From the IMG/VR virus record IMGVR_UViG_2654587746_000004, positions 1 to 37,359 of that record: a stretch of DNA of 37,359 nucleotides; one strand, given 5' to 3'. The position numbers and the translations under genes are program-made. The stretch comes from a virus (Duplodnaviria; Heunggongvirae; Uroviricota; Caudoviricetes). Positions 1 to 37,359 of this stretch are shown piece by piece (the first letter of the stretch is position 1; each line of letters starts with the position of its first letter). The notes beneath the pieces are model-generated. The model did no database searches, was not told where the DNA came from, and saw only the letters and a program-made list of their open reading frames with translations.

Positions 1-1158
1 ATGCTCACCGTTAAGCAGATTGAAGCAGCAAAGCCGAAAGAAAAACCATACCGCCTTCTCGATGGTAATGGCCTGTACCTTTATGTTCCTGTATCCGGGA
101 AAAAGGTATGGCAGCTTCGCTACAAGATTGACGGTAAGGAGAAAATCCTGACCGTCGGAAAATATCCGCTTATGACTTTGCAGGAAGCAAGGGATAAGGC
201 ATGGACTGCGAGGAAAGACATCTCGGTTGGCATCGATCCGGTAAAGGCGAAAAATGCTTCGTCTAACAACAATTCATTTAGTGCGATTTACAAGGAATGG
301 TACGAGCACAAGAAGCAAGTCTGGTCAGTAGGGTATGCGACTGAACTTGCAAAAATGTTTGATGACGACATTTTGCCTATCATCGGCGGCCTTGAAATTC
401 AGGATATTGAGCCGATGCAACTGCTGGAAGTAATCCGCAGATTTGAAGATCGCGGTGCAATGGAGCGAGCAAATAAAGCCCGCAGAAGATGCGGCGAGGT
501 TTTCCGTTACGCTATTGTCACCGGCAGGGCTAAATATAACCCGGCACCTGACCTTGCTGACGCCATGAGGGGATACCGCAAGAAGAACTTCCCGTTTCTT
601 CCTGCAGACCAGATCCCGGCATTCAATAAAGCACTGGCAACATTTTCAGGAAGTATCGTATCGCTCATTGCCACCAAGGTTTTACGCTACACAGCCCTAA
701 GAACAAAAGAGCTTCGTTCCATGCAATGGAAGAACGTCGATTTTGAAAACAGGATTATCACCATTGACGCCAATGTGATGAAGGGACGCAAAATTCATGT
801 TGTCCCGATGTCGGACCAGGTGGTTGAACTTCTCACTACGTTAAGCTCCATCACCAAACCAGTATCAGAATTTGTTTTTGCCGGGCGCAACGATAAGAAG
901 AAGCCAATCTGCGAGAACGCGGTGCTACTTGTGATCAAACAAATCGGCTATGAGGGTCTGGAAAGCGGTCACGGATTCAGGCATGAATTCAGCACGATTA
1001 TGAACGAGCACGAATGGCCTGCTGACGCTATTGAAGTGCAACTGGCACATGCCAACGGCGGATCTGTGCGCGGTATTTACAACCATGCTCAGTATCTCGA
1101 TAAGCGCAGAGAAATGATGCAATGGTGGGCGGACTGGCTTGATGAAAAGGTGGAGTGA
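1..1158 (+). CDS. int: Tyrosine integrase, P4/CP4-57 family
   Basis: 385-aa ORF; N-terminal MLTVKQIEAAKPKEK...LYLYV arm-binding region and C-terminal RxxMMQWWADWLD tail resemble remembered P4-type integrases such as IntA; directly follows xis across the window junction. Confidence 0.9.
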   Translation: MLTVKQIEAAKPKEKPYRLLDGNGLYLYVPVSGKKVWQLRYKIDGKEKILTVGKYPLMTLQEARDKAWTARKDISVGIDPVKAKNASSNNNSFSAIYKEWYEHKKQVWSVGYATELAKMFDDDILPIIGGLEIQDIEPMQLLEVIRRFEDRGAMERANKARRRCGEVFRYAIVTGRAKYNPAPDLADAMRGYRKKNFPFLPADQIPAFNKALATFSGSIVSLIATKVLRYTALRTKELRSMQWKNVDFENRIITIDANVMKGRKIHVVPMSDQVVELLTTLSSITKPVSEFVFAGRNDKKKPICENAVLLVIKQIGYEGLESGHGFRHEFSTIMNEHEWPADAIEVQLAHANGGSVRGIYNHAQYLDKRREMMQWWADWLDEKVE

Positions 1159-1402
1159 ACCACCTTAACCACTATCGAAGTGCACAAAGCCTTGCAATCC
1201 AGTGCAAAGCTTGTGTGTCTTAGATTTCAGGGTTGCTTTCTTAGGCGTACAGGTTAATGAAATGCATCAAAATACCATTCACATCCACCTCACCCAGTAC
1301 TTCATAACCAACTGTTATCAGTGTATTTCCTCTCAGTTTGGTAAAGTGACAACCCTATGAGTACGAAATCGGTTAGGTGCTATCTGGCTATTGCTCTATT
1401 TA

Positions 1403-2545
1403 TCAAGGTGCTTCTCTAACGGATTCAGTTTTAATTGAAGATACATCTGATTTTTTTTGCATTCTACGAGCGATGGCATGCCCTATGGATACTGATGGTT
1501 TTTCAATAAAGTTATAAGATATGATTGATATAATAAAAGTAGCGCAAATCATAGCTAGAAAAACACCAAATCCTTTACTATCCAATACCCCGTACGGTTT
1601 GAGATATAAAACAGCAAGACTGTATACAACCATATGATTAATGTAAAGTGAATAGGATATTTCACCAACATACGTTAGAATTTTATTTCTATATACATCC
1701 CTACACTTAGAAATAAGGACTATTGGGGCTATAATCATAAATGAATAAGCCCCCCATGCTACAATTCCAGGTCCATTCCTTAACCCTAGGCATAAAAAAA
1801 GCAAGGCAATCGCTAATGTAATATTAAGAAATTGAACAACAGGCATTTTATTTATAAGTCTAGAAGGTAGCCTAATGTAGGCCTCTGCAATAATCATCCC
1901 CAAAATAAAGTCATATATTATTGGATTTGATACAAATACCAGATTACGAATAATTCCATCACCAGATGGCGGTTGCGCGATAGGATTTAGAAAAACATCT
2001 CCGTGAAAGTACAGTTGACCAAGAACGCAAATAATGATGAGAAGAAATGATGCGATCGCAGTTCTATATTTATGGCTGATGCATAATGAAAAAAAGAAAA
2101 CCACATAGAACCAAATTTCATACGTTAGTGTCCATGCAGGTATTATTATACTATAACCTGACCATGGCCCTATAAAATTATAGTCAATTGGTATGAGCAA
2201 GTAGCTCTTTATTATTTGTGATGATGTATATATTGCCTCATAGTTGAGGTATATAGCCAGAGTAAGGATTATAAAGTAAACAGGGTACAACCTAAAAAAA
2301 CGCTTAGCAGCAAACACCATTGGCCGGTTTTTTGCCTTATTCATTGAAGAATAAGTAATGATAAATCCACTTATAACAAAGAATATATCAACACCAACCT
2401 CACCTATACCAAAAAGAATGTCGCCCAAGTCCTTTTGGGCATACACTCCATTTAAATATACTCTAAAGTGAAACGCAATGACTAGAAGTACCGCGATCCC
2501 TCTAAGGACTTGAATAGAGTCTAACTTATTTGTTTTTCTTTCCAT
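1403..2545 (-). CDS. Integral-membrane acyltransferase, family 3 (Oac-like O-antigen acetyltransferase; serotype conversion)
   Basis: 380-aa ORF, markedly AT-rich; many hydrophobic segments; N-terminal LRGIAVLLVIAFH...DIFFVISGF motif typical of Acyl_transf_3/Oac; sits between tailspike and int as oac does in Sf6. Confidence 0.8.
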   Translation of the reverse strand: MERKTNKLDSIQVLRGIAVLLVIAFHFRVYLNGVYAQKDLGDILFGIGEVGVDIFFVISGFIITYSSMNKAKNRPMVFAAKRFFRLYPVYFIILTLAIYLNYEAIYTSSQIIKSYLLIPIDYNFIGPWSGYSIIIPAWTLTYEIWFYVVFFFSLCISHKYRTAIASFLLIIICVLGQLYFHGDVFLNPIAQPPSGDGIIRNLVFVSNPIIYDFILGMIIAEAYIRLPSRLINKMPVVQFLNITLAIALLFLCLGLRNGPGIVAWGAYSFMIIAPIVLISKCRDVYRNKILTYVGEISYSLYINHMVVYSLAVLYLKPYGVLDSKGFGVFLAMICATFIISIISYNFIEKPSVSIGHAIARRMQKKSDVSSIKTESVREAP

Positions 2546-2615
2546 ATCAAAATGTGTTTTACTGATTTTTTTTAAACATACCAGATCAAAGTAATCATTT
2601 CAATACATAGGTCTT

Positions 2616-4739
2616 TTAAAAGTTTCCCTCTGATAAGAAAGAATAGGTTCCTGGCCCACCTGGAATATTGCATGTCCATGCCTTTGGTTGTCCTGAAGCA
2701 GGTGCGCTATTGATAACACGCTCACCTATATCCCAGAAACCGGATGTAGGTACTGACGAAAGATAAAATGTTGTTTTTTCAACTTGCAACGCGTTTGATG
2801 GCATTCCATATGCACATAGAGAAGGTGAGTTTATGAGTACATTTCCTGAACCATAATTTCTTATACCAACATTTATAGCTGTATCAGTTTCGTATATATA
2901 CACACCACAACTAACATAGCTCCATTTCCCATTACCAGCTAAAGGTGCTGTAGAGTCTGTTTGTCCTGCACCATTAATTATAAACATAAGTTTTGACGCT
3001 GATCCCTGGTCATTGACCCACGCACCAAACCATACAAATTTCCCTTTTAGTTCTGGTGATTTGTTGAGGTCTATCGTTCGTCCCCAAACTCTATCTCCTG
3101 TCGTAACTAAGAATGAATAATTACCAGCATAGATGTTTTGAGTTTTTATCAATGTTCCTGTAGTTCCAGATGCCGCAGTCCAGAGCAACATATTTCGATC
3201 AAGATAGTTAGCAGTTAACTCTCTGTTCGCAATATCTATTAAATGAGCAGTGTCAGGGTTTTGTGTCGCCGGGTCATAACTACCAACGTATCCGATGGAG
3301 TTCACTGTGTTGTTGGCAAGATATAGCCTGTCAGTAACTTTGGACGAAAGATTATTGTGGTACATTGCTAATAAATTATTCACTTTCGATGCGTCTAATA
3401 ACTGATTATTTTCAATCGTCAGGTTTTTCGCATAGTTCGTGAAAATAAATCCGTCTTGGTTAGGTAGCGCGCTGGCGTAGCCAATCGCGGTCTGCTGATT
3501 CCCGCGAATAGATACGGTATCATTAATTTTTGAAAGGTCAGGAATTAATGTAAAATTGTTCGCGATAAGGTGGATATCCGCACGTACTGTAATAGACTCA
3601 GGTACACTATACTGGTAACCAATCTCACCGTTGCGTTCCCAATAGTTATCATCAAGGTTAAGGCCTTTAACCCCGTAAGCCAAAAGTCCGTAGAACTTAT
3701 TTTGCTCTATATTGTTGCCATTAACTCTGACGCTCATACCGCCCTCAGCGTAAGCTGGCGTAAGTAAAACTCCACCGGCTCCGTTACCATAGATACGGCT
3801 GTTGATTATATTAATATTATTGCAGTAACCACCAACATTAATACCGTTACCGGCGTTTTGAAACAACCGGCACCCAATGATGTCAATGGAGTAACCGTTA
3901 ACTAATATTGCGTTGTTATTAGTATTAACCACGTCAATATTTTCTATTTTAATGTGGTTGGCTTCAGTAAGACTGATGCCGTTAGCTGCGTAGCCATTTC
4001 CGTCAAGACCAAAGTCCCTGAACTCGCAGAACGTAATTACCCCATCTTGTTGCGTGATTATCGGTGCCGCTGTACCCGTAGAGAAAATTCTGGACTGATA
4101 TGCGCCAGCACCTCGTATCATGGTGACAGTATTCTTAATCGTAATACCAGGGTCAACAATGAACGCCCCCTCTGGTATAACAATCTCAGTTGGCAACGTA
4201 GCATCATCAATAGCCTTCTGAAATGCAGCTTTGTTCTGAGCACCGGTGTTTCCCTCAGCAAACCCGTAGTCTGTAAGCGTCCTCAGGTCGATAGTTAGCT
4301 TTTTTGAGAGAATGGTCGATGTGCTATCGACAAACTGTGGGTTATGCATGACTAGAGAGTCGCCAAGTGAGTGATCTTCGCTCAGGAGATTGCCCTTAAA
4401 CTGATCTGGATCATACTTTAGCACATTCGGAAAATAGAACTGCTGCGCACCGTATGCATCGTATACAGCCATAGAATGGCCTTGCACAGTTACGAACTTG
4501 GCAATCTGTCCGTTATATACCGGATACCCGCCAGCGTTAATGATGATTGGCTGTGCAACAGGAACGTGAGAACCGTCTTCATTCTCTACATAAACCTGAA
4601 TCTGGTTTTCAGGGTTTACCGGGTCAGTGTCAATTTTACCGATATAAATTTTACCATTGGCTACGGCTTTAAAAGAACGAGCCATAGTGAAGAGTTGCGA
4701 AGGCATCGATACGATCACATTGGCTGTAATGTCTGTCAT
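2616..4739 (-). CDS. Tailspike protein (P22 gp9-like head-binding domain, divergent beta-helix receptor-binding domain)
   Basis: 707-aa ORF; first ~115 aa ([40 protein letters not shown]...) match the remembered P22-family tailspike head-binding domain; remainder is Gly/Asn-rich repetitive beta-helix-like sequence. Confidence 0.9.
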
Positions 4740-4839: not shown

Positions 4840-5718
4840 TCAGTAGTTATGTACTGAAGGAGGCAATTCTTTATTCTTAAGTCTCATCCATGCGGAAAGA
4901 TTCGTTGGTCCGTCTGGCTCATTAATATCAACATCTCGTGTGTGGTTTATTAAAACGTCTCTCGCCATTCCGATAACATACGAGAATTCATGACCGTAGT
5001 CGTAGCATCTGCCGGAATAGTTCGATTGAATTTGTTTTAGCGCCGGATACAGTTCGCGGAATAATGCCTGTGAGCGGTTGGCATAATCCCATAACCATAC
5101 AAGGCTGTTTGCTTCTTTTGCAGAAAGCTCGTTGGTTTTCTTCTCTTGTTTGCCAATGAACTCACCTTCAAGCACTACCCTGTGGATGTACTCTACGGCC
5201 AGCGGGATTTGTTCAATTGAAAGTTCATCAATGCTGTCAATACCAAAACGCTGATGAACCATATTGTATGCATCGTCATAGCGAAGTCCTTTCTTTCCTA
5301 CCAGCATGTTTACTGCATCGCGTAGCGGTGTTCTTTCCTCAACAGTGGTTTTCTTTCCTTTTACATACTCGCCATGTTTGCGAATTGAAGGCAGAACTTC
5401 TGCTGTTACCCACTTGCGGAATTTGTGCGGGACTGAACCTTTATTGACTGCATCGCGGCAGCGCAGAACCAATGTATACATACCTGATTCGCTCACAATG
5501 CTTAGATTCTGCTCACCACCAAGGGTGTAACTTAAAGTTACTCCCTTTTCATCGTCATCAAGTGCAGTAAGCGCCTTGCGTGAGTTAGTCAAATCTAAAG
5601 CATCACAAACATCTTTAGCTACAAACCACGGCTCACCGCACTTGTTGATGACGCGGATTTCACTGTCGCCGAATTTGAAGATGGTGAAATCGTTTTGTGC
5701 CTTTGCTATACTTTTCAT
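4840..5718 (-). CDS. ant: Antirepressor Ant (BRO-N/AntA-type)
   Basis: 292-aa ORF immediately downstream of arc; N-terminal [30 protein letters not shown] resembles BRO-N/antirepressor family; position matches P22 immI. Confidence 0.85.
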
Positions 5719-5750
5719 GTCAATATTTCCTAATCCGATTTGTTGATGCC

Positions 5751-5782
5751 GAAGCCCTGACTGTTACAGCAGTTGGGGCTTC
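5751..5782 (+). other. Imperfect long hairpin in arc-ant intergenic spacer (possible sar antisense RNA terminator / processing site)
   Basis: GAAGCCCTGACTG...CAGTTGGGGCTTC inverted repeat between arc stop and ant start; P22 has the sar antisense RNA here. Promoter not identified. Confidence 0.3.
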
Positions 5783-5786
5783 AACT

Positions 5787-5948
5787 TTACGCACCAATGC
5801 GCCCTTCCTTCTTAAAGCTTTCCATTACTCGCTGATAAATCTCAGAATTAACAGACCGACCATTTTCTTCCGCCACCTTGCGTACCAAATCCAATACTTC
5901 TTTAGGCCACCGCAAATTGAACTGTGGCATTTTGCTCATTCCTTTCAT
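5787..5948 (-). CDS. arc: Arc repressor
   Basis: 53-aa product MKGMSKMPQFNLRWPKEVLDLVRKVAEENGRSVNSEIYQRVMESFKKEGRIGA is near-identical to remembered P22 Arc; ORF-track start is an upstream extension. Confidence 0.92.
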   Translation of the reverse strand: MKGMSKMPQFNLRWPKEVLDLVRKVAEENGRSVNSEIYQRVMESFKKEGRIGA

Positions 5949-6038: not shown

Positions 6039-6293
6039 ATGGCTAGAGATGATCCGCACTTTAACTTCCGTATGCCTTTGGAAGTAAGAGAAAAATTGAA
6101 ATTAAGAGCCGAGGCTAACGGAAGGTCAATGAACTCTGAGTTATTACAAATCGTTCAGGATGCACTATCAAAACCATCACCGATTACAGGATATCGCGAC
6201 GAAGCTGAACGCTTGGCTGATCAGCAGGCTGAGCAGTTCAAGGCTATAGTGTTTGAGACACTTAAAAAGATTTATGAAAAGGATTTGAAATGA
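6039..6293 (+). CDS. mnt: Mnt maintenance repressor
   Basis: 84-aa product MARDDPHFNFRMPLEVREKLKLRAEANGRSMNSELLQIVQDAL... closely matches remembered P22 Mnt (ribbon-helix-helix). Confidence 0.92.
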   Translation: MARDDPHFNFRMPLEVREKLKLRAEANGRSMNSELLQIVQDALSKPSPITGYRDEAERLADQQAEQFKAIVFETLKKIYEKDLK

Positions 6294-6625
6294 GATTTCT
6301 ATCACTGTTCTTGTTAGCAGTTGTCTCTTCTTCCAGTGCTGAGCTGCGCGAGCTTCAAACGGGTAATGACCTTCTTTACAACATTCAACAAGGTAAAAAG
6401 GGTGATGATTTTTCATCGCTTTACATTACTGGATATTTGCGCGGAGTAACTGACTCATTGATACTAATTGGTTCTCTATGTCCTCCTGATGGCGTTGACA
6501 TGTATCAATACACCGATATCGTTGAGAAATATCTAAACAAAAACCCAGAATCAAGAAATGAGAGTGCAGTTATACTAACCGCCCTAGCAGTAGGAAAAAC
6601 ATTTCCGTGCAAAAAGAATCAATAA
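6290..6625 (+). CDS. Secreted (signal-peptide) protein of unknown function; possible Rap1a/Tai4-like periplasmic immunity-type fold (unverified)
   Basis: 111-aa ORF; ATG overlaps mnt stop (ATGA); N-terminus MRFLSLFLLAVVSSSSA looks like a Sec signal peptide; mature part has two Cys (..SLCPPDG.. and ..FPCKKNQ) and a GYLRGVTD motif; lower GC than flanking phage genes. Confidence 0.6.
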   Translation: MRFLSLFLLAVVSSSSAELRELQTGNDLLYNIQQGKKGDDFSSLYITGYLRGVTDSLILIGSLCPPDGVDMYQYTDIVEKYLNKNPESRNESAVILTALAVGKTFPCKKNQ

Positions 6626-6640: not shown

Positions 6641-7030
6641 ATGAAATTGATTATAGCAATGGCTTTCCTTGTCTTCTCGTTTTCTGTCTCAGCAGAGTGC
6701 TGGGTCGTTGGAGATATGCACGGAATAAGCTATTCAGAACGAAATAATTTTCAACCGGAAGAAGATGGTTTTAGTGGAACATTCATCATTAAGACAAACG
6801 GTGAAGATGCCAGTATCACATATTCTGGGACGGATGCGGGCGGCATGGCTTACAAAGCATTGTCTAAAAACTCCATCATTGGAATCGGCGCGAATGGCGA
6901 AACTCAACGAGTTATCGACTCATGGGTAATACATCCTAATGGAACAGTTTTAATGTCGAAAACCATTTCTGGTTATGGGAATATGGATTCAACCAAAGCT
7001 TTTGTTGGAAAAGTAAAAAGAAAATGTTAA
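6641..7030 (+). CDS. Secreted (signal-peptide) protein of unknown function, predicted beta-rich
   Basis: 129-aa ORF 15 bp after the previous gene with AAGGG upstream; N-terminus MKLIIAMAFLVFSFSVSA is signal-peptide-like; mature protein starts EC.. and ends ..KRKC (terminal Cys pair); Gly/Ser/Thr-rich; low GC. Confidence 0.6.
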   Translation: MKLIIAMAFLVFSFSVSAECWVVGDMHGISYSERNNFQPEEDGFSGTFIIKTNGEDASITYSGTDAGGMAYKALSKNSIIGIGANGETQRVIDSWVIHPNGTVLMSKTISGYGNMDSTKAFVGKVKRKC

Positions 7031-24689: not shown

Positions 24690-25313
24690 CTAACGTGTGA
24701 CCGCGTTCAAAATGTTGTCTGCGATTGACTCTTCCTTGTGGCATTGAACCACCAGAGCGTCATACAGCGGCTTAACAGTGCGTGACCAGGTGGGTTGAGT
24801 AAGGTTTGGGATTAGCATCGTTACAGCGCGATATGCGGCGCTTGCTGGCATCCTTGAATAGCCGACACCTTTGCATCTTCCGCACTCTTTCTCAACAACT
24901 CTCCCCCACTGCTCTGTTTTTGCTATATCAACCGCGCGGCCTGTACCGTGGCAATCTCTGCATCTTGCCCCCGGCGTCGCGGCACTACGGCAATAATCCG
25001 CATAAGCGAATGTTGCGAGCACTTGCAGTACCTTTGCCTTAGTATTTCCTTCGAGCTTTGCCACACCACGGTATTTCCCCGATACCTTGTGTGCAAATTG
25101 CATCAGATAGTTGATAGCCTTTTGTTTGTCGTTCTGGCTGAGTTCGTGCTTACCACAGAATGCAGCCATTCCAAATCCGGCTTGTGATTGCGCCATCCCC
25201 ATAGCAGCCATCACATCAGTACCGGAAAGAGAGTCAGAAGCCGTGGCCCGTGGTGAGTCGCTCATCATCGGGCTTTTTGGCGAATGAAATTTAGCTACAC
25301 TTTCGAGTCTCAT
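24690..25313 (-). CDS. Q: Late antiterminator Q (lambda-type)
   Basis: 207-aa product MRLESVAKFHSPKSPMMSDSPRATASDSLSGTDVMAAMGMAQSQAGFG... essentially identical to remembered lambda Q. Confidence 0.95.
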   Translation of the reverse strand: MRLESVAKFHSPKSPMMSDSPRATASDSLSGTDVMAAMGMAQSQAGFGMAAFCGKHELSQNDKQKAINYLMQFAHKVSGKYRGVAKLEGNTKAKVLQVLATFAYADYCRSAATPGARCRDCHGTGRAVDIAKTEQWGRVVEKECGRCKGVGYSRMPASAAYRAVTMLIPNLTQPTWSRTVKPLYDALVVQCHKEESIADNILNAVTR

Positions 25314-25498
25314 GGTCTACCCCTCTTGCCCTGTTTGACCATCAGGACGCCGTTAACTATTACGTGACGCTCGCCTTTGCTGTCTCGGTTGTACTTGAGC
25401 ACTGTTCCTCTTGCGCAGGAAAGCATCCTCGCCACTTCGGTCTGATTGCCTCGTGTCTGGATAAGAAGCTCTGGTATCGTTTGAATTGTGGCGTTCAT
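25310..25498 (-). CDS. ninH: NinH-like protein
   Basis: 62-aa product with ..GNQTEVARMLSCARGTVLKY..IVNGVLMV.. resembling lambda NinH HTH region; directly upstream of Q. Confidence 0.8.
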   Translation of the reverse strand: MNATIQTIPELLIQTRGNQTEVARMLSCARGTVLKYNRDSKGERHVIVNGVLMVKQGKRGRP

Positions 25499-25857
25499 GC
25501 GTTCTCCAGTTCGGTGATTTTTATTCCAAGCCTTCCGCCTGGTACTTTCACGCCACGAATTACGCGAATGTCATCGAATTGCTCGTCATCTTCCGCAAAC
25601 CCGGCGTGGATAAGGGAGTCGAGTAAGCCCTTCAGGATGTTATCGAGGTCGCGGCGGCGGGAGTCTGGAACGTCTGCGATGACTTTGATGCGGAGTCGTG
25701 ATTTGGTGAAAATGTCTAACTTGAGTTGGCGGATGATTTGCTGAACGTCTTTTCGGTATTTCTGGCCTTTATCGCTGATGTAGTATTGGCTTCCCCGTCT
25801 TCGCCAGTAGGTATTCACCGACGGCGGGTAAGGAAGCACAAACTGATATTCGTTCAT
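25495..25857 (-). CDS. rusA: Holliday-junction resolvase RusA
   Basis: 120-aa product; motifs LPYPPSVNTYW, RRRDLDNILKGLLDSL and GGRLGIKITELE match RusA family. Confidence 0.9.
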   Translation of the reverse strand: MNEYQFVLPYPPSVNTYWRRRGSQYYISDKGQKYRKDVQQIIRQLKLDIFTKSRLRIKVIADVPDSRRRDLDNILKGLLDSLIHAGFAEDDEQFDDIRVIRGVKVPGGRLGIKITELENA

Positions 25858-26144
25858 GGCTTAATCTTCCCCTCCTTCAGCAGTATCGCCTGCGTCCTGA
25901 TCACGCCTTCGAGGTGGTAAAGTCTGGCGTCTTTGTTGTCGAGATTATGGGTGCGTCGGTCGATTTCATCGTGACACGCGCTACAAGCCCATGCGCCCAT
26001 CAGGTCGTCAGGCTTCATTCCAGTTCCGCAAATTCCAGCCATCCGGTAATGTGCCAGAACTGTAGTTTCAGGGTTGCCATTGCATACGCCGTAAATACGT
26101 ACCTGACATTCTCTTCCGCGCGCTTCTTTGCGTAGGTTAGCCAT
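25854..26144 (-). CDS. DUF1364/YbcO-like zinc-binding nin-region protein (putative nuclease)
   Basis: 96-aa product MANLRKEARGRECQVRIYGVCNGNPETTVLAHYR...ACSACHDEIDRRTH resembles remembered DLP12 YbcO; conserved Cys cluster. Confidence 0.8.
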   Translation of the reverse strand: MANLRKEARGRECQVRIYGVCNGNPETTVLAHYRMAGICGTGMKPDDLMGAWACSACHDEIDRRTHNLDNKDARLYHLEGVIRTQAILLKEGKIKP

Positions 26145-26866
26145 TAAGCAGCCTCCCCTGTTACTTTCAGCATTCCGTTATCGAGCAGCTTTCTGGTCAG
26201 CCACTGTTGGCCACGCCCGGTGATTTTTGTGGTGAACGATATCTGTATTCCGTGATTTGTGTTGACCGCTGTTTCTTTCACTGTGAAATAGCCGCGATCC
26301 ATATATTCCTGCATTGGCACATTGCGCCGGGAACCTGAAGCAATAAGGATTTTGTGATCGCGCATCCACGCAAACAGTTTGTTTGGACCAATTCCAACAA
26401 CCTTTGCAAAGTTTCCAATCAAAATTCCGCTGGCCTCGCCAACGCGATCGGCAAACTCAACTTTAGGTGCGGCAATTGCGAGCTGGTTTTCCAGTTGCAT
26501 TTTCTGCTCAGCAAGATCAGCAGCAAGGCGCAACGCTTCTGGTAGCGTTTTGGGGATATTAACCGCAGCTTCTTCAAGCTCTCGCCAACGGTCAACAAGA
26601 CGAGCGGTGAATTCCGGCGACAACTGAGCGACGACAATAATGCTGTCTCGCTTACCTTGTTCGCCCTCAAAAACGTAAGCCTCTACGCCACGAAGTAATC
26701 CTAAGTTATTGATTTTTTCGAAAACCACCATTGGGGGATTTCGGATCACACCTCGAGCCGCCAGTCGTTCAATAGATTGTTTCACCTTGTCATGACGACT
26801 TCCCACCAACTCAGCGATTTCAATGCTTGTCATTTTGATGGCATTGCCATTTATTAACTCACTCAT
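26144..26866 (-). CDS. Rha-N / KilA-C (antirepressor-type) two-domain regulatory protein, Roi-like
   Basis: 240-aa ORF; N-terminal MTSIEIAELVGSRHDKVKQSIERL Rha-type motif and C-terminal KilAC/ANT-like domain; start overlaps ninF stop. Confidence 0.7.
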   Translation of the reverse strand: MSELINGNAIKMTSIEIAELVGSRHDKVKQSIERLAARGVIRNPPMVVFEKINNLGLLRGVEAYVFEGEQGKRDSIIVVAQLSPEFTARLVDRWRELEEAAVNIPKTLPEALRLAADLAEQKMQLENQLAIAAPKVEFADRVGEASGILIGNFAKVVGIGPNKLFAWMRDHKILIASGSRRNVPMQEYMDRGYFTVKETAVNTNHGIQISFTTKITGRGQQWLTRKLLDNGMLKVTGEAA

Positions 26867-27035
26867 CGTCTTCTTCCTCGTACATTGAGCTATTCGGATC
26901 GCTCATCAGTTCTGCGCAGCAGTGCTCACACACGTGAACTTCCAGCACATGCAGCTTCTGACCGCAGTTAGCGCACGTTAAAGCTCGCTCGACGCTTTCT
27001 TTCTGGTATTGAAGGGATTGGGATGGGCTAAGCAT
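26859..27035 (-). CDS. ninF: NinF
   Basis: 58-aa ORF absent from the track (below 60 aa), translated by hand: [58 protein letters not shown], matching remembered lambda NinF; overlaps both neighbours. Confidence 0.85.
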
Positions 27036-27435
27036 TATTGGCGTCCTGCATCATGAGAAAGACAATCATGGCGGCGCGGAGGGGATTTTCATGTATAGCT
27101 CGCTTAGATTTACAGTAGGCCACACCGCGTGCACCCCACTCGTCTTCATCGAGATTGATAATGCTAATCCTGTATTTTTCAATAATCGGCCATGCGTCTG
27201 CTGGGTTTACGCATGGGTTAAATGATCCGCGCTCAACTTCTACTTCAACTGCGTCTCCGTTTACAATGTCTCCCTCAAATGAGACAAACACCATATCGCC
27301 ATTCTCACCTTCTTTGTAATCCGGTGATCCGTTATGAATGGCTTCGAATACCGCCACGTTAATTTCAAAATCACTTAACTGTGAATAATCCATTGTCATT
27401 TCCTCGCACGATGTCTTAGCCACCGGATATCCCAC
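27028..27435 (-). CDS. Nin-region hypothetical protein (possibly YbcN-like)
   Basis: 135-aa acidic ORF between ninD and ninF; true start may be an internal Met ([17 protein letters not shown]...); family assignment tentative. Confidence 0.55.
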
Positions 27436-27538
27436 AGGTGAGCCGTGTAGTTGAAGGTTTTTACGTCAGATTCTTTTGGGATTGGCTTGCGTTTATTTCT
27501 GGAGCATTTCGTTGGAAGGTATTTGCAGTTTTCACAGA

Positions 27539-27712
27539 TTATGTCGGTGATACTTCGTCGCTGTCTCGCCACACGTCCTCCTTTTCCTGCGGTAGTGGTA
27601 ACACCCCTGTTGGTGTTCTTTCACACCGGAGACACCATCGATTCCAGTAAGGTTGATTTGGTCGGAAGCGGTTATCTTCTTTGCATTCACCGCACCGATA
27701 ACATCGCATCAT
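27539..27712 (-). CDS. ninD: NinD-like Cys-rich zinc-finger protein
   Basis: 57-aa product [36 protein letters not shown]...; ATG overlaps ninB stop (ATGA); CxxC...CxxC motif. Confidence 0.7.
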
Positions 27713-28149
27713 GCTGCCCGGTCTCCCCATCGCGCTTTCCACTCCAGAGCCAGTCTCGCTTCGTCTGACCACTTAACGCCACGCTCTGTACCGAATGCCT
27801 GTATAAGCTCTAATAGCTCCGCAAATTCGCTTACACGCATCCTGCTGGTTGACTGGCCTATTACCACAAAGCCATTCCCGGCAAGGTTAGGAACAACGTC
27901 CTGCTGCTTTAATGCTGCGGTAAACACACACTTCCAGCTTTCTGCATCCAGCCAGCGACCATGCCATTCAACCTGACGAGAGACGTCACCTAAGCAGGCC
28001 CATAGCTTCCTGTTTTGGTCTAAGCTGCGGTTGCGTTCCTGAATGGTTACTACGATTGGTTTGGTTGGGTCTGGAAGGATTTGCTGTACTGCGTGAATAG
28101 CGTTCTGCTGATGTGCTGGAGATCGAATTTCAAAGGTTAGTTTTTTCAT
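27709..28149 (-). CDS. ninB: NinB (Orf-family recombination mediator)
   Basis: 146-aa product [55 protein letters not shown]... near-identical to remembered lambda NinB; start set at MKKL. Confidence 0.92.
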
Positions 28150-28226
28150 GACTTCCCTCTCCCCCAAATAAAAAGGCCTGCGATTACCAGCAGGCCTGTT
28201 ATTAGCTCAGTGATGTAGATGGTCAT
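28146..28226 (-). CDS. Putative 26-aa hydrophobic peptide, translationally coupled on both sides
   Basis: Hand-translated [26 protein letters not shown]; ATG abuts primase-helicase stop (TAA-ATG) and stop overlaps ninB ATG (ATGA); the tR2-like hairpin lies inside it. Speculative. Confidence 0.3.
   Translation of the reverse strand: MTIYITELITGLLVIAGLFIWGRGKS
28166..28197 (-). terminator. tR2-like rho-independent terminator between replication and nin genes
   Basis: Minus strand AGGCCTGC-TGGTAATC-GCAGGCCT perfect 8-bp stem followed by TTTTTATTT; position equals lambda tR2. Confidence 0.7.
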
Positions 28227-30107
28227 TTAATACTCCGTCACGTTTTCCTGTCGCCACGCCTCGTCATATTCCGATTTCGGCATATTGGCGATGTAGCTAT
28301 ATGGCGATCCTGATTCAAGTTGCAGGAACTGGTGCGATTGCTCGTCAAGGAACAACGGGACACCACCTTCCCAACCTTCGCCGTTACGTTGCTTTTCAAG
28401 CATCAAAACAGATGCCGGAGATGCCAGTAGCTGTTCGTCCTTCTCTGACATCTTTTCACCACTCTGAACTCTCTGTAACGCTCTCTCGCGAGCCTTGTTA
28501 CGCCAGATTATAAAAAGGTTGTCTGTCAGGTCTGTTATCGCTCCAGAGCCTTTTACGTCCATTTTCCCGGTTGGTTTTTCTTCGCTGTCTCCTTTTCTGG
28601 AGTGAGTAACGAGAATGACGTGGGAGTTTGTTTTGTTTTTGAAGTCACAAATCGAGTCAACAAATGCTTTCTGCCCGTTATAATCATCGTCACCTATGCC
28701 GCATTTCATCAGGCTGTCGATGATGAATAACTGGATCCCGTATCGGCGGCGAGCGTAGTCGAATATTTCGATCAGCCTGTCGGCTTTCGCCGTTCCGGTC
28801 AGGCCAAACACCCAAAGTCTTTCGTCATAAAATTTAAATGCAGAGTCAATTTCCAGCACTGGCGGCATCTTGCAGCACGTCGCCTGACGGGTAAGGCGCT
28901 TAAGGAGAATACCAGGCTTCAGCTCAAGTGACGCGATGCATGTCTTCACACCCTGACGCATTGCCTCAAGTGCCATATGCCCGACAACCTCCGTTTTTCC
29001 GTGACCGTTCACACCATTGACCAGCGTCAACTCGGCCTCACGGAACTGGAATTTATCTGCCAGAGATTCCCACGGTGGATTAAACAGATACTGCTGCTTG
29101 CCGTAGAAAGCGTTGATAGTGTCCTGGTAAAACTCTCGCGCGCTGTAGAGTTCTTCAGGATCGAAGTAGGATGCCGTGCCGATGTACTGCCAGATTTCAT
29201 CCTCGGTAACACCGTTCATCAGGCATTCGTTGATGTCTTTGTACGGCAGAGTAACAAGACGGCAACGATGTTCACCGAGTCGGCTTGCGATTTCCCTTGC
29301 GGCTTCACGACCAACATCATCAACGTCCATCGAGATGAATATTTCCTCAAACCTGTCGAGGTTGTGATACTCAAACTCAATCCACTGTTGCTTAGCGCCT
29401 TTCCCGCCACCAAACGGCACGGATAACGCCGAGATGCCGTATTGCGCATAGCTCATACAATCAATTTCGCCTTCGCAAAGTACAACCGCCCTCACGCCAG
29501 CGTCCAGAGCCTGCCATCCGAACAGACAAGGTTCGCAATCACCTTCTGCCATAATGACTTTCTTCCCGTCCGGGCGCTCAGTGCTGATTCGCTTGACCTG
29601 CAACAACTCACCATCGCGTTTGTACGGAATCACCAGAGCATCCAGTTCCCGCTCTCCATTCCACACCTTGCCGCTGACAACCTCGTAGCGCTTTACGATT
29701 TCTGGCGATATGCCACGCGATTGCAGGTACTCAAGATGGGATTCTGTTCTGGTAACGTAGCGGGCGATTTTCTTGCGGTCAGGTCTGGAGAATTTCTTCT
29801 CACGTTTGGCATCGAAATGGTGATCGTCATCCTTGATTCCGAGAAAGGCTTTCGCTTCCTGCATAGCCTGATGCAGGTTAATTCCACGACATGCCATCCA
29901 CAAATCAAGCATGTCACCGCCGTCTCCCTCAGCGAAATCAGCCCATTTTTTCTTGCCGCTAAGGTTGACCTTAAGGCTGTTTCCCTTGTCACCGTTGACG
30001 TTACCGGCAACCCACTCATGCCCCTCTTTCTTGCCGTTTGGCAACAGGTGCGGAGCCACCCTGTCAACCTGCGCCCAAAGCAGGTCGCTAAGTTCACTTG
30101 GCGTCAT
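28227..30107 (-). CDS. Bifunctional replicative primase-helicase (zinc-finger/TOPRIM primase + DnaB-family helicase)
   Basis: 626-aa ORF downstream of the O-like initiator; Walker A GVNGHGKT in C-terminal half; central acidic TOPRIM-like segment (..LCEGEIDCMS.., ..ISMDVDDVG..). Confidence 0.8.
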   Translation of the reverse strand: MTPSELSDLLWAQVDRVAPHLLPNGKKEGHEWVAGNVNGDKGNSLKVNLSGKKKWADFAEGDGGDMLDLWMACRGINLHQAMQEAKAFLGIKDDDHHFDAKREKKFSRPDRKKIARYVTRTESHLEYLQSRGISPEIVKRYEVVSGKVWNGERELDALVIPYKRDGELLQVKRISTERPDGKKVIMAEGDCEPCLFGWQALDAGVRAVVLCEGEIDCMSYAQYGISALSVPFGGGKGAKQQWIEFEYHNLDRFEEIFISMDVDDVGREAAREIASRLGEHRCRLVTLPYKDINECLMNGVTEDEIWQYIGTASYFDPEELYSAREFYQDTINAFYGKQQYLFNPPWESLADKFQFREAELTLVNGVNGHGKTEVVGHMALEAMRQGVKTCIASLELKPGILLKRLTRQATCCKMPPVLEIDSAFKFYDERLWVFGLTGTAKADRLIEIFDYARRRYGIQLFIIDSLMKCGIGDDDYNGQKAFVDSICDFKNKTNSHVILVTHSRKGDSEEKPTGKMDVKGSGAITDLTDNLFIIWRNKARERALQRVQSGEKMSEKDEQLLASPASVLMLEKQRNGEGWEGGVPLFLDEQSHQFLQLESGSPYSYIANMPKSEYDEAWRQENVTEY

Positions 30108-30214
30108 GATTCCCTCAGATTGAGATTTTTAAACCAGAAATCGACAAACGAAATACTTAACCAGCCGTGGTTATAACCAGCGACCAGTAGCGATTTGATT
30201 TTTGATTTCATGGT

Positions 30215-31075
30215 TCACCTGTCGAAAAACACGTAGCCAGTTTTCGATACGGTGATTGCGGATGATGGTTTGGATTGTGGTTGAATGGTTTCTGGCTTTT
30301 CGTCGTTCCAGCGCTGACCGTTCAGGTAGCTCGATGGTAACAACCTGTCGAATCCGAACTGCTTACCATTCCTGCATGCGATGTCTTCTGCCAGCATCGT
30401 GGCAAACTCGCTTGCCGTACCCCTGGTAGTTTTACGCCATTCCCTGAACTGTGTTCTGAATGCCGAAGCCGCGTTTTTCTTCCCGGCTTTCCGCATGCCT
30501 GCACACCAGAATATTTCCTCGAATGCCTTGTCGGTTTCTTCGTGACGGTCAGATGATTTTTCACACTCTGTCCGAACACTTTCGGACATAGTGTTTTTAT
30601 TATTTCTTTTTTCTTTTGTAATAGTTTCTTTTGTGTGTCCCTGTTTTGGTGACAGCGCTGTCACCGTTTTGGTGACACTTTTTGTCACCAATGCAGTGAC
30701 ATTATCACCAGAGTAGTGACACCCTTCGATTTGCCATTCCTCGATGTTCTTGTTAGGACCGATTTGCTGGCCTTCGCGAAGGATAACCTTCATCGCGATA
30801 AGCTCATTCTTGGCCTTGTTTACCTTCTGTCTTGGCAGCCTGGTAATTTGAGCTAACTGACTATCAGAGATGCGATCCATCTTTTTACCGTAGCCGTATG
30901 TTTTACGGCATATGGCGTGGGCAACCTTGCTCTGATTTTTCGTTAAATCTGCGCCGATAAGCTCTTCATACAGGGCATTTGCAAGACGGGTATAACCATC
31001 TTCAACTTCTGCCACACGACGCTCCACAGGCCGTTGTGAAGGCCTTAAATGTGTTACGGTTGCAAGATTACTCAT
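30215..31075 (-). CDS. Replication initiator, lambda O-like
   Basis: 286-aa ORF; N-terminal region (..[63 protein letters not shown]..) resembles the lambda O N-domain; iterons inside the gene. Confidence 0.85.
30590..30725. repeat. Replication origin: iterons with adjacent AT-rich region, inside the O-like gene
   Basis: Repeated GGTGACA/TGTCACC units (GGTGACAGCGCTGTCACC; GGTGACACTTTTTGTCACC; GTGACATTATCACC; GTGACACC) next to a T-rich tract; coding strand reads as repeated VTKTVTAL peptide. Confidence 0.75.
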
Positions 31076-31214
31076 GACCTTTCTCCTTCTGCATCAGCTT
31101 CACTTTTTCCAACTCAGCCCGGAATCGACCAGGCTGCTTGAAGCTGGACAGGAAGCGATCACGTAGTATGTGTTTGTGAATTTTGTCCTGGTAAGGACTG
31201 AGTTGTTTTGTCAT
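31068..31214 (-). CDS. Putative 48-aa basic protein between cII and the O-like gene
   Basis: Hand-translated [48 protein letters not shown]; GGAG Shine-Dalgarno upstream; stop overlaps O start; not in the track (below 60 aa). Confidence 0.4.
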
Positions 31215-33593: not shown

Positions 33594-33620
33594 GCCCTCC
33601 AGTGTGAGGGCTTTTTTATA
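33594..33620 (+). terminator. tL1-like intrinsic terminator in the pL operon
   Basis: GCCCTC-CAGTGT-GAGGGC followed by TTTTTTATAT, upstream of the cIII-like gene. Confidence 0.65.
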
Positions 33621-33683
33621 TGCATACCAATAACGCTTCAATTGAGGCGTTTTCGTTATGCAATCAAACAGAAGGAGCATCCT

Positions 33684-34021: not shown

Positions 34022-34110
34022 AGGTGTTCGCGTATTTTTAAATGCGGCAAAGACTGAAGTATTAAATCAGCGTTATTTACTTGGGCCGTGTCCATTCTGA
34101 GAACAATCAT

Positions 34111-35099: not shown

Positions 35100-35122
35100 T
35101 TTAGAAAAATAAGGATTTAATT

Positions 35123-35416
35123 ATGCCAGCGCCTCTGTATGGTGCGGATGACCCGCGCCGCTGTTCCGGCAATTCCGTATCGGAGGTGCTGGATAAATTC
35201 AGGAAAAACTACAACCGGATAATGTCGCTACCGCAGGAAACGAAAGAGGAAAAGGAATTTCGCCATTGTATATGGCTTGCAGAGAAAGAAGAACTCGAGC
35301 GAATTTACCAGACATCAATCCGACCATTCCGCAAAGCCACATATACCCACTTCCCTGAAATTGACCCGCGCCTGCGTAATTACCGCTCACGCTATGGCGC
35401 TATCAGTAATGACTGA
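35123..35416 (+). CDS. abc2: Anti-RecBCD protein Abc2
   Basis: 97-aa product [30 protein letters not shown]... matches remembered P22 Abc2; located after erf as in P22. Confidence 0.8.
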
Positions 35417-35426
35417 GGAATTTACC

Positions 35427-35594
35427 ATGAGAGGACTTGCATACAATCCCGGCATTCTTCCGGCAGAAATGATTATTCGCCAACGCGTAAAGCCAATGCC
35501 ATCGAGAGAGGAATTGCTTAAGAGAAATAGTTTCGGTTCTGTTAATGACAACAAATATCTGAATGCGATGTGGCGTAAAGGAGGCAAGCAGTGA
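35427..35594 (+). CDS. Small hypothetical protein (possibly Abc1-position gene)
   Basis: 55-aa product [31 protein letters not shown]... with GAGGAA Shine-Dalgarno 6 nt upstream; start chosen by RBS within the longer track ORF. Confidence 0.45.
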
Positions 35595-35890
35595 GTGTCA
35601 ATCTTATTGATAAACGTCGACGTGGGCAACAAATACCACCTGTAGGAATTCCGAATCACACATGGTTTTGCGTACTTGATATCGATGGTATGGATTCGTT
35701 GGTTGACACTCGTCATTACTGCGATACCGCAACAGCTACTCCGGCGAAAGCAAAGAAAATGGCTGCTCTGATAGAAAACTGGACTCCACCTGATGGTTGG
35801 TGCAATGGGAATGATCGAAATTGGCATGAAAAAATGAAGGGCTATATCTGCGATTTCTTACGTAAATGCAACGGCTTCAGGGTGATGTGA
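35591..35890 (+). CDS. Hypothetical Cys-containing protein
   Basis: 99-aa ORF with GTG start preceded by AAGGAGG; overlaps previous stop; several Cys/Trp (..[19 protein letters not shown]..). Confidence 0.5.
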
Positions 35891-35891
35891 T

Positions 35892-36449
35892 ATGACCAAA
35901 ATTAACTATCAGGCACTGCGTGAAGCGGCAGAAAAAGCAACGTGTGGTGTGTGGTCGCTCGAATATGGAGAGGAGAGATTTGATGGTGATGATGCACTAA
36001 TTCATCGCGAGGCTGCTGGATATATTCCCATTTGCAGAATTGAAGGAGCGCATCCTGAAAGCGGTTTCGATGAAGATTTCCAAATGGAACAGCAGGCCAA
36101 TGCTGAATTCATCGCCGCAGCCAATCCGGCTACCGTCTTGGCGCTGCTGGATGAGCTGGAAACAGCAAAAAAGCGCATAGCAGAACTGAAAGCCGAACCT
36201 GTAAGCCAAACTTACAAGTTGAACCAGCTATCGGGCAACTCTCCGGTAACTCAGGATAGTTGGATAAGCTGTAGTGAGCGGATTCCCGCGCAAGATGATT
36301 GGGTTTTAATTTATTCAAAGCACGGCGAGTATATGGCAGGACAGGTACAAGGGGAATACGTGGAGTTGAGCGACGGCACTTTATCGTGGTTAGGGAACGC
36401 CTTGTTCTGGATGCCGCTACCAGAACCGCCTCGATTAAAGGAGCTATAA
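35892..36449 (+). CDS. Ead/Ea22-like protein with C-terminal DUF551 domain
   Basis: 185-aa ORF; N-terminal ..ALREAAEKATCGVW..ANAEFIAAANPATVLALLDELE.. and C-terminal ..WISCSERIPAQDDWVLIY.. pattern recalled from lambdoid ea-region proteins. Confidence 0.7.
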   Translation: MTKINYQALREAAEKATCGVWSLEYGEERFDGDDALIHREAAGYIPICRIEGAHPESGFDEDFQMEQQANAEFIAAANPATVLALLDELETAKKRIAELKAEPVSQTYKLNQLSGNSPVTQDSWISCSERIPAQDDWVLIYSKHGEYMAGQVQGEYVELSDGTLSWLGNALFWMPLPEPPRLKEL

Positions 36450-36563
36450 TAGTGAACTATTATATCTATTTGTATTAAAAGAGTTTTTATAAAATAAATC
36501 TTCCAAAGCATGTAAAAACACTGTTAATCTTAACGTGTGTGAAACGTGAAGAGAGGTGTTGAA

Positions 36564-36845
36564 ATGAGCATTCATGATTTGTGTGAAGATCAAGAGCAAT
36601 GGGCTATGCAGACCCTTATGGGATCAGGAGTTCTTGCAAGGTGCAGAATCCATAACGATGTAATTTTAGACAGCGGAAATGATGCTTCTTCTGCTTATAA
36701 ATTAGGAACTTACTTATATCAAAAAGATAATAGCTGCAACTTATTCAATACTCTTACTGAAGCCCGCGACGCAATAAAGGATGCATATGAATCGTATTGT
36801 GGGATTGATGATTGCCCACAATGCTCAAAATACATTGACGATTAA
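36564..36845 (+). CDS. Moron-encoded hypothetical protein (AT-rich, own promoter and terminators)
   Basis: 93-aa product MSIHDLCEDQEQWAMQTLMGSGV...CGIDDCPQCSKYIDD from ATG with GAGAGG Shine-Dalgarno; AT-rich promoter-like sequence upstream; low GC. Confidence 0.55.
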   Translation: MSIHDLCEDQEQWAMQTLMGSGVLARCRIHNDVILDSGNDASSAYKLGTYLYQKDNSCNLFNTLTEARDAIKDAYESYCGIDDCPQCSKYIDD

Positions 36846-36864
36846 TAATATGAACAAGTAACTA

Positions 36865-36920
36865 TCCTCGCACTCGCGGGGATTTCTTTTATCTGAACTC
36901 GCTACGGCGAGTTTTGTTTT
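36865..36920 (+). terminator. Tandem intrinsic terminators after the moron gene
   Basis: CCTCGC-ACTC-GCGGGG + ATTTCTTTT, then AACTCGC-TACG-GCGAGTT + TTGTTTT. Confidence 0.65.
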
Positions 36921-36933
36921 ATGGAGATGATAA

Positions 36934-37101
36934 ATGCACTTCCGAGTCACAGGTGAATGGAATGGAGAACCATTCAACAGAGTTATCGAAGCAGAGAACA
37001 TCAATGACTGCTATGACCACTGGATGATATGGGCGCAGATAGCACATGCAGACGTAACCAATATTCGAATTGAAGAACTGAAAGAACACCAAGCCGCCTG
37101 A
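36934..37101 (+). CDS. Small hypothetical protein
   Basis: 55-aa hand-translated MHFRVTGEWNGEPFNRVIEAENINDCYDHWMIWAQIAHADVTNIRIEELKEHQAA; GGAGA Shine-Dalgarno upstream; stop lies in the loop of a terminator hairpin. Confidence 0.5.
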   Translation: MHFRVTGEWNGEPFNRVIEAENINDCYDHWMIWAQIAHADVTNIRIEELKEHQAA

Positions 37102-37116
37102 TGGCGGTTTTTTATT
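37093..37116 (+). terminator. Rho-independent terminator upstream of xis
   Basis: CCGCC-TGAT-GGCGG followed by TTTTTTATT. Confidence 0.7.
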
Positions 37117-37123
37117 GCCTGAT

Positions 37124-37139
37124 TTGCAGGTTCGATTCC
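37124..37139. other. tRNA T-arm-like 16-mer; candidate attP core fragment
   Basis: TTGCAGGTTCGATTCC matches the T-stem/loop of an Arg tRNA (argW as remembered) but no complete cloverleaf or 3' acceptor follows; lies just upstream of the xis-int operon. Confidence 0.2.
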
Positions 37140-37158
37140 ATATTCGGAGATAGCACTC

Positions 37159-37359
37159 ATGCAACACGAACTACAGCCTGATTCACTGGTTGATTTGAAA
37201 TTCATCATGGCTGATACTGGCTTTGGTAAAACCTTCATCTATGACCGGATTAAGTCCGGCGACCTGCCTAAAGCCAAAGTTATCCACGGGCGAGCAAGAT
37301 GGTTATATCGTGACCATTGTGAATTCAAAAATAAGCTCTTAAGCCGCGCCAATGGGTAA
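37159..37359 (+). CDS. xis: AlpA-family excisionase / transcriptional regulator
   Basis: 66-aa product ..LVDLKFIMADTGFGKTFIYDRIKSGDLPKAKVIHGRARWLYRDHCEF.. typical of AlpA/Xis winged-helix proteins; directly precedes int across the window junction. Confidence 0.8.
   Translation: MQHELQPDSLVDLKFIMADTGFGKTFIYDRIKSGDLPKAKVIHGRARWLYRDHCEFKNKLLSRANG

Follow-up and report, generated by a model that had tools for sequence, protein, structure and literature searches.

The DNA stretch analyzed here, called the window throughout, is the entire 37,359-bp virus record IMGVR_UViG_2654587746_000004 (G+C content 47.2%), which contains approximately 60 genes arranged as three strand blocks. Position 1 is the ATG of the gene for a tyrosine integrase of 385 amino acids (aa), IntS, and the last base belongs to the stop codon of the gene for a 66-aa TorI-type excisionase, a recombination directionality factor (RDF); the two genes are also denoted int and xis below. 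One copy of each of the following modules is present: integration, O-antigen acyltransferase and tailspike, immI (mnt/arc/sar/ant), virion genes from the small terminase (TerS) gene to gp16, lysis (S/R/Rz/Rz1), Q, nin, replication, cII/cro/c2, N, and a pL operon with ral, cIII, erf, an SSB-like gene and abc2. With high confidence, we interpret the window as an integrated, apparently intact P22-like (Lederbergvirus-type, lambdoid) prophage of Escherichia coli, located at argW, given in prophage order and cut at the intS start and the torI stop.

Ends of the window and the host locus

The coordinates and gene calls agree with the first-pass annotation in that the window starts exactly at the int ATG, ends exactly at the xis stop and has no host flank, and the gene calls together with tblastn bear out its statement that every expected module is present once; the modules are also of full length. 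Neither host genes nor insertion sequence (IS) elements were found inside the window, ARAGORN predicted no tRNA in it, and an Rfam scan returned a single RNA, the P22 sar antisense RNA. A repeat search, which included the examination of the ends for terminal redundancy proposed in the first-pass annotation, detected no terminal and no long internal repeats in the window, the lack of terminal repeats being expected for prophage DNA.

The source contig was identified by an exact-protein look-up with the Ead/DUF551 protein (35892-36449), which returned a single contig, JWKJ01000003.1 (202 kb; NCBI assembly GCA_000812725.1). This contig carries the prophage. Positions 1-11739 of the window are 100% identical to the contig, with 0 mismatches, positions 29892-37359 are likewise 100% identical, and the end coordinates on the contig, 77880 and 115238, span exactly 37,359 bp. 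On the left, the contig encodes fadL, yfdF, mlaA, yfdC and tRNA-Arg(CCT), followed by 161 nt and the int ATG; on the right, the xis stop is followed by 73 nt, the attachment (att) core and then dsdC, dsdX and dsdA (a LysR gene, a GntP permease gene and a PALP gene, respectively). The att core consists of 16 nt, CTGCAGGGGACACCAT, that are identical to the 3' end of the tRNA-Arg gene argW. Its left copy begins 176 nt before the int ATG, with 160 nt between core and ATG, its right copy begins 74 nt after the xis stop, and both copies are intact. Thus, approximately 36 kb separate int from xis, one at each end of the prophage, and both ends of the window adjoin host DNA. The window itself contains no copy of the core on either strand.

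The same locus is occupied in E. coli E2865 (O26), for which 46 kb of the chromosome NZ_AP018808.1 were compared. The order in this strain is yfdC, tRNA-Arg, 161 bp, intS, acyltransferase, tailspike, ant, arc and so on to torI, with one copy of the core within argW and a second one 73 nt beyond the torI stop; the left flank of JWKJ01000003.1 is 98.2% identical to the E2865 chromosome.

The position of the phage attachment site, attP, in this type of module is documented by several relatives. The recombination module of the cryptic prophage KplE1 is conserved in CUS-3, HK620 and Sf6, its attP is located between the RDF gene and int, its intS promoter overlaps attL, and the transcription of int and of the RDF gene is uncoupled (PMC2951348). 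The integrase encoded in the window is 98-99% identical to those of Sf6, CUS-3 and HK620 in tblastn (99% to Sf6 and CUS-3), and the proteins identical to its excisionase, Sf6 gp18 and HK620 HkaC, are both annotated as TorI in their records. An interval of 249 bp that contains attP separates the xis stop from the int ATG in Sf6, HK620 and E. coli no107, and the records of the two phages carry an annotation of the attP core at this intergenic position. Given that attP lies between xis and int in the IntS/TorI module, integration at argW parts the two genes to opposite ends of the prophage, and the order from int to xis is therefore the prophage order. The hallmarks of the module are all in place here, namely both enzymes, attP between the RDF gene and int, and integration at the 3' end of argW between yfdC and dsdC.

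Two observations weigh against this interpretation. First, the identity of window and contig at 11740-29891 rests on the exact match in length, the direct comparison having covered 1-11739 and 29892-37359. Second, torI, the 249-bp attP region and intS are contiguous in the chromosome of E. coli no107, which is not the case in JWKJ01000003.1. Phage-form junctions of this kind can occur in assemblies, for example, from tandem lysogens or circular forms; the arrangement in no107 could reflect tandem lysogeny, insertion at a different site or an artefact of assembly. Many genes near the torI-attP-intS junction of no107 are flagged as frameshifted.

A second 16-mer, TTGCAGGTTCGATTCC, which matches the T-arm of the host argW exactly and precedes xis by 20 nt, was considered as a possible att junction inside the window. 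This candidate was rejected: the 16-mer is found upstream of torI in Sf6, HK620 and no107, that is, it is conserved in the virion-derived Sf6 and HK620 sequences, and the true core is located 300 bp further on. In HK620, it lies within the pI promoter, annotated as dependent on cII. The GenBank record of CUS-3 takes TTGCAGGTTCGATTCC as the core of both attL and attR and so ends before torI, which looks like a misplaced prophage boundary that excludes torI.

Apparent intactness of the prophage and alternative readings

Whether the prophage could still form phage bears on the alternative that survives best, although we consider it improbable, namely that of a defective or cryptic remnant resembling KplE1 (CPS-53) of E. 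coli K-12. The window shares with KplE1 the argW-dsdC locus and the IntS/TorI module, with int at attL and the RDF gene at attR (PMC2951348); homologs of kil, sieA and sieB were not seen in the window in tblastn comparisons with P22, Sf6, CUS-3, HK620 and lambda; and 37.6 kb is at the small end for P22-like phages. Against this reading, the structural, lysis, regulatory and replication proteins of the window align over approximately 100% of their length with same-length homologs in reference phages or other assemblies, whereas KplE1 is a remnant that lacks both an immunity region and the complete set of virion genes (PMC2951348). Furthermore, HK620 is viable at 38.3 kb, both att cores are intact in JWKJ01000003.1, and it is the related E2865 prophage, by contrast, that has its coat gene split by an IS3 element. 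With no frameshift, no IS element, and the sar RNA and both nut sites present, the prophage looks intact from its sequence.

The first-pass annotation had described the window as a complete, circularly permuted genome, which would imply a circular molecule opened at the int ATG, with the xis stop abutting the int start. The lack of host flanks and the plausibility of the TAA-ATG abutment as a gene junction are compatible with such a description, and in the lambda and P22 records xis and int are indeed adjacent or overlapping, with attP downstream of int. This layout appears to have been assumed for the window, in which case the ends would join seamlessly; in the present module, however, attP occupies the interval from xis to int, as annotated for Sf6 and HK620 and as described in PMC2951348. 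When the two ends of the window were joined and the junction was used as a query against complete E. coli genomes, two patterns were returned: in O26 strains, the match (99.7%) starts exactly at window position 1, and where torI and intS are neighbors, the 249 bp between the two genes hold the same core, CTGCAGGGGACACCAT. The attP region rebuilt from both flanks on the contig comprises 73 + 16 + 160 = 249 nt and aligns without gaps to the xis-int intergenic regions of Sf6, HK620 and no107. Thus, three pieces are missing from the window: the 160 nt that precede int (the P' arm, which carries the intS promoter region), the 73 nt that follow xis and the core of 16 nt. The ends of the window, which had been taken to be contiguous in the native molecule, both border on host DNA in JWKJ01000003.1; non-contiguous ends are what the first-pass annotation had itself named as a refutation of its reading. 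An attP downstream of int (1159-1402), as in the lambda and P22 layout, was also considered and rejected, because there is no core between int and the acyltransferase gene and this stretch is contiguous in the integrated prophages of E2865 and JWKJ01000003.1, hence no att site is located there; the break of homology at approximately position 1227 marks the boundary between gtrABC-type and acyltransferase-type conversion modules. Altogether, these observations make the circular-genome description very improbable, and it is abandoned here in favor of the integrated prophage.

It is equally improbable that the assembly has fused two or more related prophages into a chimera. In favor of this reading, the source is a draft genome, and the coverage of either searched part of the window by a complete E. 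coli genome or a phage record does not exceed approximately 80%. Against it, the prophage is located on a single contig of 202 kb with proper attL and attR, it has a length that fits the family, its joints recur elsewhere (the gp16-ant block in five assemblies, mnt/Rap1a/beta-barrel in 24 genomes, and int-acyltransferase-tailspike in O26 genomes), and mosaicism of this kind is the norm for lambdoid phages.

Module ancestry, relatives and the genes after mnt

The ancestry of the modules was analyzed by comparing each protein encoded in the window with P22, Sf6, CUS-3, HK620 and lambda using tblastn, and domains were assigned with Pfam (Table 1). The suggestion of the first-pass annotation that this is a mosaic temperate phage of mixed ancestry agrees with the module-by-module comparison, as do the lambda-like character of Q, S, R, cII, ninB and ral and the P22-like character of c2, cro, arc, mnt, erf and abc2.

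Table 1. Annotated features of the window. Percentages are amino acid identities in tblastn; the Pfam domains of ant and the 53-aa gene call of arc were obtained on the identical genes in JWKJ01000003.1
Feature	Position	Strand	Details
intS, tyrosine integrase	1..1158	+	First prophage gene, beside attL/argW; Pfam Arm-DNA-bind_3, Phage_int_M, Phage_integrase
Putative O-antigen acyltransferase, lysogenic conversion gene	1403..2545	-	Pfam Acyl_transf_3, E=9e-29
Tailspike	2616..4739	-	P22-type head-binding domain and distinct beta-helix receptor-binding domain; Pfam Head_binding (E=1e-66), Beta_helix
ant, antirepressor	4840..5718	-	85% to P22 Ant over 59% of length; Pfam Bro-N, P22_AR_C
sar antisense RNA	5720..5786	+	Rfam RF00262, 65.6 bits (gathering score 43), E=1.4e-11
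arc repressor	5787..5948	-	53 aa; 99% to P22 Arc
mnt repressor	6039..6293	+	81% to P22 Mnt, 91% to CUS-3 Mnt
Secreted Rap1a/Tai-family immunity-like protein, moron	6290..6625	+	Pfam PF18602 Rap1a
Secreted 129-aa protein, second moron	6641..7030	+	Predicted small beta-barrel
gp16, ejection/virion protein	7055-8896	-	75% to P22
gp20, ejection/virion protein	8893-10308	-	N-terminal half 86% to P22
gp7, ejection/virion protein	10319-11011	-	99% to HK620
gp14, ejection/virion protein	11014-11472	-	99% to CUS-3 and HK620
gp26, tail needle with knob	11469-12317	-	98% to Sf6 over full length
gp10	12317-13735	-	99-100% to Sf6, CUS-3, HK620
gp4	13745-14206	-	99% to CUS-3; 41-42% to others
Coat	14417-15670	-	CUS-3-type; 29% to P22; no Sf6 or HK620 match
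Scaffold	15689-16582	-	CUS-3-type
Portal	16673-18871	-	CUS-3-type; 35% to P22, 56% to Sf6
Large terminase (TerL)	18873-20288	-	100% to Sf6 and CUS-3
Small terminase (TerS)	20285-20710	-	91% to Sf6 and HK620, 30% to CUS-3; phrog_1482, terminase small subunit
DUF2560 gene	20790-21032	-	
Gp49 family gene	21136-21504	-	Phage_gp49_66
Rha-family regulator, inside open reading frame	21789-22550	-	Phage_pRha + ORF11CD3
Homolog of Sf6 gene 65	22510-22662	-	
Rz with embedded Rz1	22650-23087	-	Rz 97% to Sf6; Rz1 lipoprotein frame read directly
R, endolysin	23084-23560	-	97% to lambda
S, holin	23544-23867	-	99% to lambda; MKM dual start, read directly from sequence
Q, late antiterminator	24690..25313	-	100% to lambda Q
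nin region	25310..28167	-	ninH, rusA, YbcO-family gene, roi (KilAC), ninF, ninX-like gene, ninE, ninD, ninB; ninB 99% and ninD 98% to lambda; rusA and ninH 100% to HK620 and CUS-3
Toprim/DnaB-like primase-helicase	28227-30107	-	626 aa; Pfam Toprim_2, AAA_25, DnaB_C
O-like initiator	30215-31075	-	286 aa; Pfam Phage_rep_O
DUF2740 gene	31068-31214	-	
cII	31247-31540	-	96% to lambda
nutR	boxA 31633-31641, boxB 31600-31615	-	
cro	31649-31834	-	95% to P22, 100% to CUS-3
c2 repressor	31915-32565	+	92% to P22, 100% to CUS-3; S24 peptidase domain
nutL	boxA 32731-32739, boxB 32755-32770	+	
N, antiterminator	32879-33178	+	96% to CUS-3
ral	33257-33457	+	100% to lambda
cIII	33681-33854	+	
erf	34111-34716	+	75% to P22, 98% to CUS-3
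SSB-like gene	34716-35099	+	
abc2	35123-35416	+	Region 70% to P22; Pfam Anti-RecBCD_p2, E=4e-62
DUF2737 gene	35427-35594	+	
DUF7739 gene	35591-35890	+	
Ead/Ea22+DUF551 gene	35892-36449	+	
ea8.5-like gene	36564-36845	+	
orf55	36934-37101	+	
16-mer, not the crossover core	37124..37139	+	Identical to T-arm of host argW
torI-type excisionase (RDF)	37159..37359	+	Last prophage gene, beside attR; 100% to Sf6 gp18 and HK620 HkaC

The virion genes form a typical P22-like cluster, TerS-TerL-portal-scaffold-coat-gp4-gp10-gp26-gp14-gp7-gp20-gp16 plus the tailspike (2616-20710, minus strand), with 75-100% identity to P22, Sf6, CUS-3 or HK620 proteins. These genes had been described as P22/Sf6-type, which holds for the needle, an Sf6-like protein that resembles those of P22, CUS-3 and HK620 over half its length only (54-59%), and not for the coat, scaffold, portal and gp4, which are 98-99% identical to CUS-3 and either 29-56% identical to P22 and Sf6 or undetectable there. 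The initial comparison of the acyltransferase with Sf6 Oac proved to be too close, the similarity amounting to only 28% identity over 120 aa. Resemblance of the tailspike to those of Sf6, CUS-3 and HK620 is confined to the N-terminal ~115 aa, the head-binding domain being the one part in common with known tailspikes, and the exact tailspike protein was found, by exact-protein look-up, only in JWKJ01000003.1. At the DNA level, window positions 1-4836 (int, acyltransferase and tailspike) are 99.3% identical to the argW prophage of O26 STEC strains, represented by E2865. More than 12,000 blocks of the assembly collection contain the exact acyltransferase protein, compared with JWKJ01000003.1 only for the tailspike. 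These observations give a hint as to which O-antigen the tailspike may recognize.

The early region is that of a lambdoid phage, with c2/cro/cII, N and nut sites, a replication gene pair, nin, Q and S-R-Rz. The boxB sequences of nutL and nutR are identical, CCCGCCGAAATGCGGG. N itself is a hybrid in the alignment: its arginine-rich N-terminus is of the type common to HK620 and CUS-3, so that the phage 21-like label given to it in the first pass needs correction in this part. The C-terminal two-thirds of N presumably do resemble phage 21 N. The primase-helicase has no homolog in P22, Sf6, CUS-3, HK620 or lambda according to tblastn, and the pair it forms with the O-like initiator is absent from all five of these reference phages. 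Two 19-nt iteron-like repeats, 23 nt apart, were detected by the repeat search inside the gene of the O-like initiator (30636-30677, minus strand) and likely represent the replication origin.

Several additional features of the early and adjacent regions were noticed. In the pL operon, cIII is directly followed by two small HK97 gp42-like genes, with no kil homolog seen between 33681 and 34100, the gene that is adjacent to cIII in Sf6, CUS-3, HK620, lambda and P22. Motifs of the cII-binding type, TTGC-N6-TTGC, are located at 1194-1207 (minus strand), just downstream of int and opposite to it; at 25013-25026 (plus strand), inside Q in a paQ-like position; and at 31518-31531 (plus strand), in the 5' end of cII. 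The latter motif, TTGCGTTTGTTTGC, we take to be the counterpart of the lambda pRE site.

Megablast searches for relatives, for which the window was split into 1-25000 and 25001-37359, covered 50,697 phage records and 5,426 complete E. coli genomes. Hundreds of P22-like and lambdoid relatives with 93-98% identity were detected, the best matches being phiv205-1, Kapi1, CUS-3, mEp043 and Sf101, and no record covered more than approximately 60% (phages) or approximately 80% (E. coli genomes) of either part. Judging by its modules, the window is a new combination of already known parts and a routine mosaic member of the P22-like phages.

Among the named relatives, CUS-3 (CP000711), a prophage of E. 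coli K1 RS218, is similar to the window in that its record is in prophage order, from attL/int through attR, in the identical type of IntS and integration at argW, and in the coat, scaffold, portal, gp4, TerL, gp10 and gp14 proteins (98-100%) and cII (99%). It differs in encoding an endosialidase tailspike and neuO, where the window has a beta-helix tailspike and an acyltransferase, as well as in TerS (30%), a P22-type needle, DnaB-type O/P replication genes, a different Q and other morons beside mnt. Sf6 and HK620 share with the window an identical TorI, int (98-99%), attP between xis and int with the core CTGCAGGGGACACCAT, and TerS (91%), and HK620 additionally shares Q, rusA and ninH (99-100%). 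In contrast, their coat, scaffold and portal proteins are Sf6-type (from no match to 56%), and their immunity regions, DnaB-type helicases, tailspike receptor domains and conversion genes are different. P22 shows the same gene order in the virion, immI, immC, nin and lysis modules, a Q that is 98% identical, and sar RNA, whereas its attP is located downstream of int, its xis overlaps int, and it departs from the window in int/xis, the head module (coat 29%), the terminase, the gtrABC conversion genes, sieA/sieB and the gene 18/12 replication genes. Beyond the region of int to tailspike, the E2865 prophage is 93-97% identical to the window over several later blocks and is distinguished by lambda-type O/P/ren, a different immunity region and other morons beside mnt. 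Finally, mEp043 (genus Aguilavirus) encodes replication genes of the same lengths and in the same order, namely the 626-aa Toprim primase-helicase, the 286-aa O-like protein and the DUF2740 gene (28227..31214 in the window), and matches 58% of 25001-37359 at 97.8% DNA identity, with a different immunity region.

The immI region, which is present in P22 but not in every member of the group, is represented in the window by mnt, arc, ant and sar. The two genes that follow mnt occupy the place of sieA in P22. The first of these overlaps the mnt stop by 4 nt, and its product contains a signal peptide and matches PF18602 over the entire profile (positions 1-90 of 90) with 55.3 bits (cut-off 27.7; E=9.7e-15). 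Comparison with Tai4 in the PDB yielded a weak match in which both cysteines are aligned. The protein belongs to phrog_3870, which PHROGs lists as of unknown function, and RefSeq uses the name 'Rap1a/Tai family immunity protein' for identical copies encoded in complete E. coli genomes. The window contains no cognate Tae4/Ssp-type effector and no type VI secretion system (T6SS) gene, the neighbors being mnt and the beta-barrel protein. NCBIfam and PADLOC searches with the moron and early-left proteins gave nothing useful, with only weak PADLOC matches, on the primase-helicase.

The mnt/Rap1a/beta-barrel core is at least 99% identical in 24 complete E. coli genomes, with the Rap1a-family gene beside mnt in those listed. 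The block gp16/beta-barrel/Rap1a/mnt/arc/ant was found in five other assemblies beside different neighbors; the gp16-to-ant block thus travels together among P22-like prophages with different tailspikes and head modules. Among phage records, 6290-6625 has a partial match only in the unannotated Salmonella phage ST-35, and no paper on phage-borne Rap1a/Tai4 in P22-like phages was found within the literature library searched. We tentatively suggest, while considering it rather doubtful, that the two secreted proteins constitute a lysogenic conversion cassette that, if expressed from the prophage together with mnt, would guard the peptidoglycan of the lysogen against incoming hydrolases. The latter could be T6SS amidase effectors of competitors or cell-wall-degrading proteins of superinfecting phages.

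Expected behavior of the prophage and consequences

In the lysogen, the c2 repressor, with its S24 peptidase domain, together with Mnt would keep the prophage silent, and the acyltransferase and the two secreted proteins encoded after mnt would be expressed. We infer the subsequent steps, that is, induction, replication, late-gene expression and packaging, from the knowledge of P22-like phages and from PMC2951348. Upon induction, IntS and TorI would recombine attL with attR, yielding a circle of 37,608 bp (the window plus the 249-bp attP). The O-like initiator and the primase-helicase would then serve replication, N would act at nutL and nutR, and the lambda-type Q would switch on the late operon. 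The homology of TerS (91%) and TerL (100%) to Sf6 points to headful (pac) packaging, in which the Sf6-type terminase would fill CUS-3-type capsids; only this virion DNA would be circularly permuted and terminally redundant.

As a phage, the prophage adds one more mosaic of well-known P22-like and lambdoid modules, with the Rap1a/Tai-family gene in the mnt operon as the one cargo gene of mild interest. If the proposed protection is real and directed against T6SS effectors, it would represent an orphan immunity gene spread by a P22-like phage.

The exact coincidence of both cuts with gene boundaries suggests that a prophage-prediction pipeline produced the record. In the case of phages that carry the IntS/TorI module, an int-to-xis sequence is a prophage cut at gene boundaries, and circularizing the window as it stands would result in the loss of attP and of the intS promoter region. 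Trimmed proviruses of this kind would mislead calls of genome completeness, prediction of att sites and synthetic reconstruction of the respective phages.

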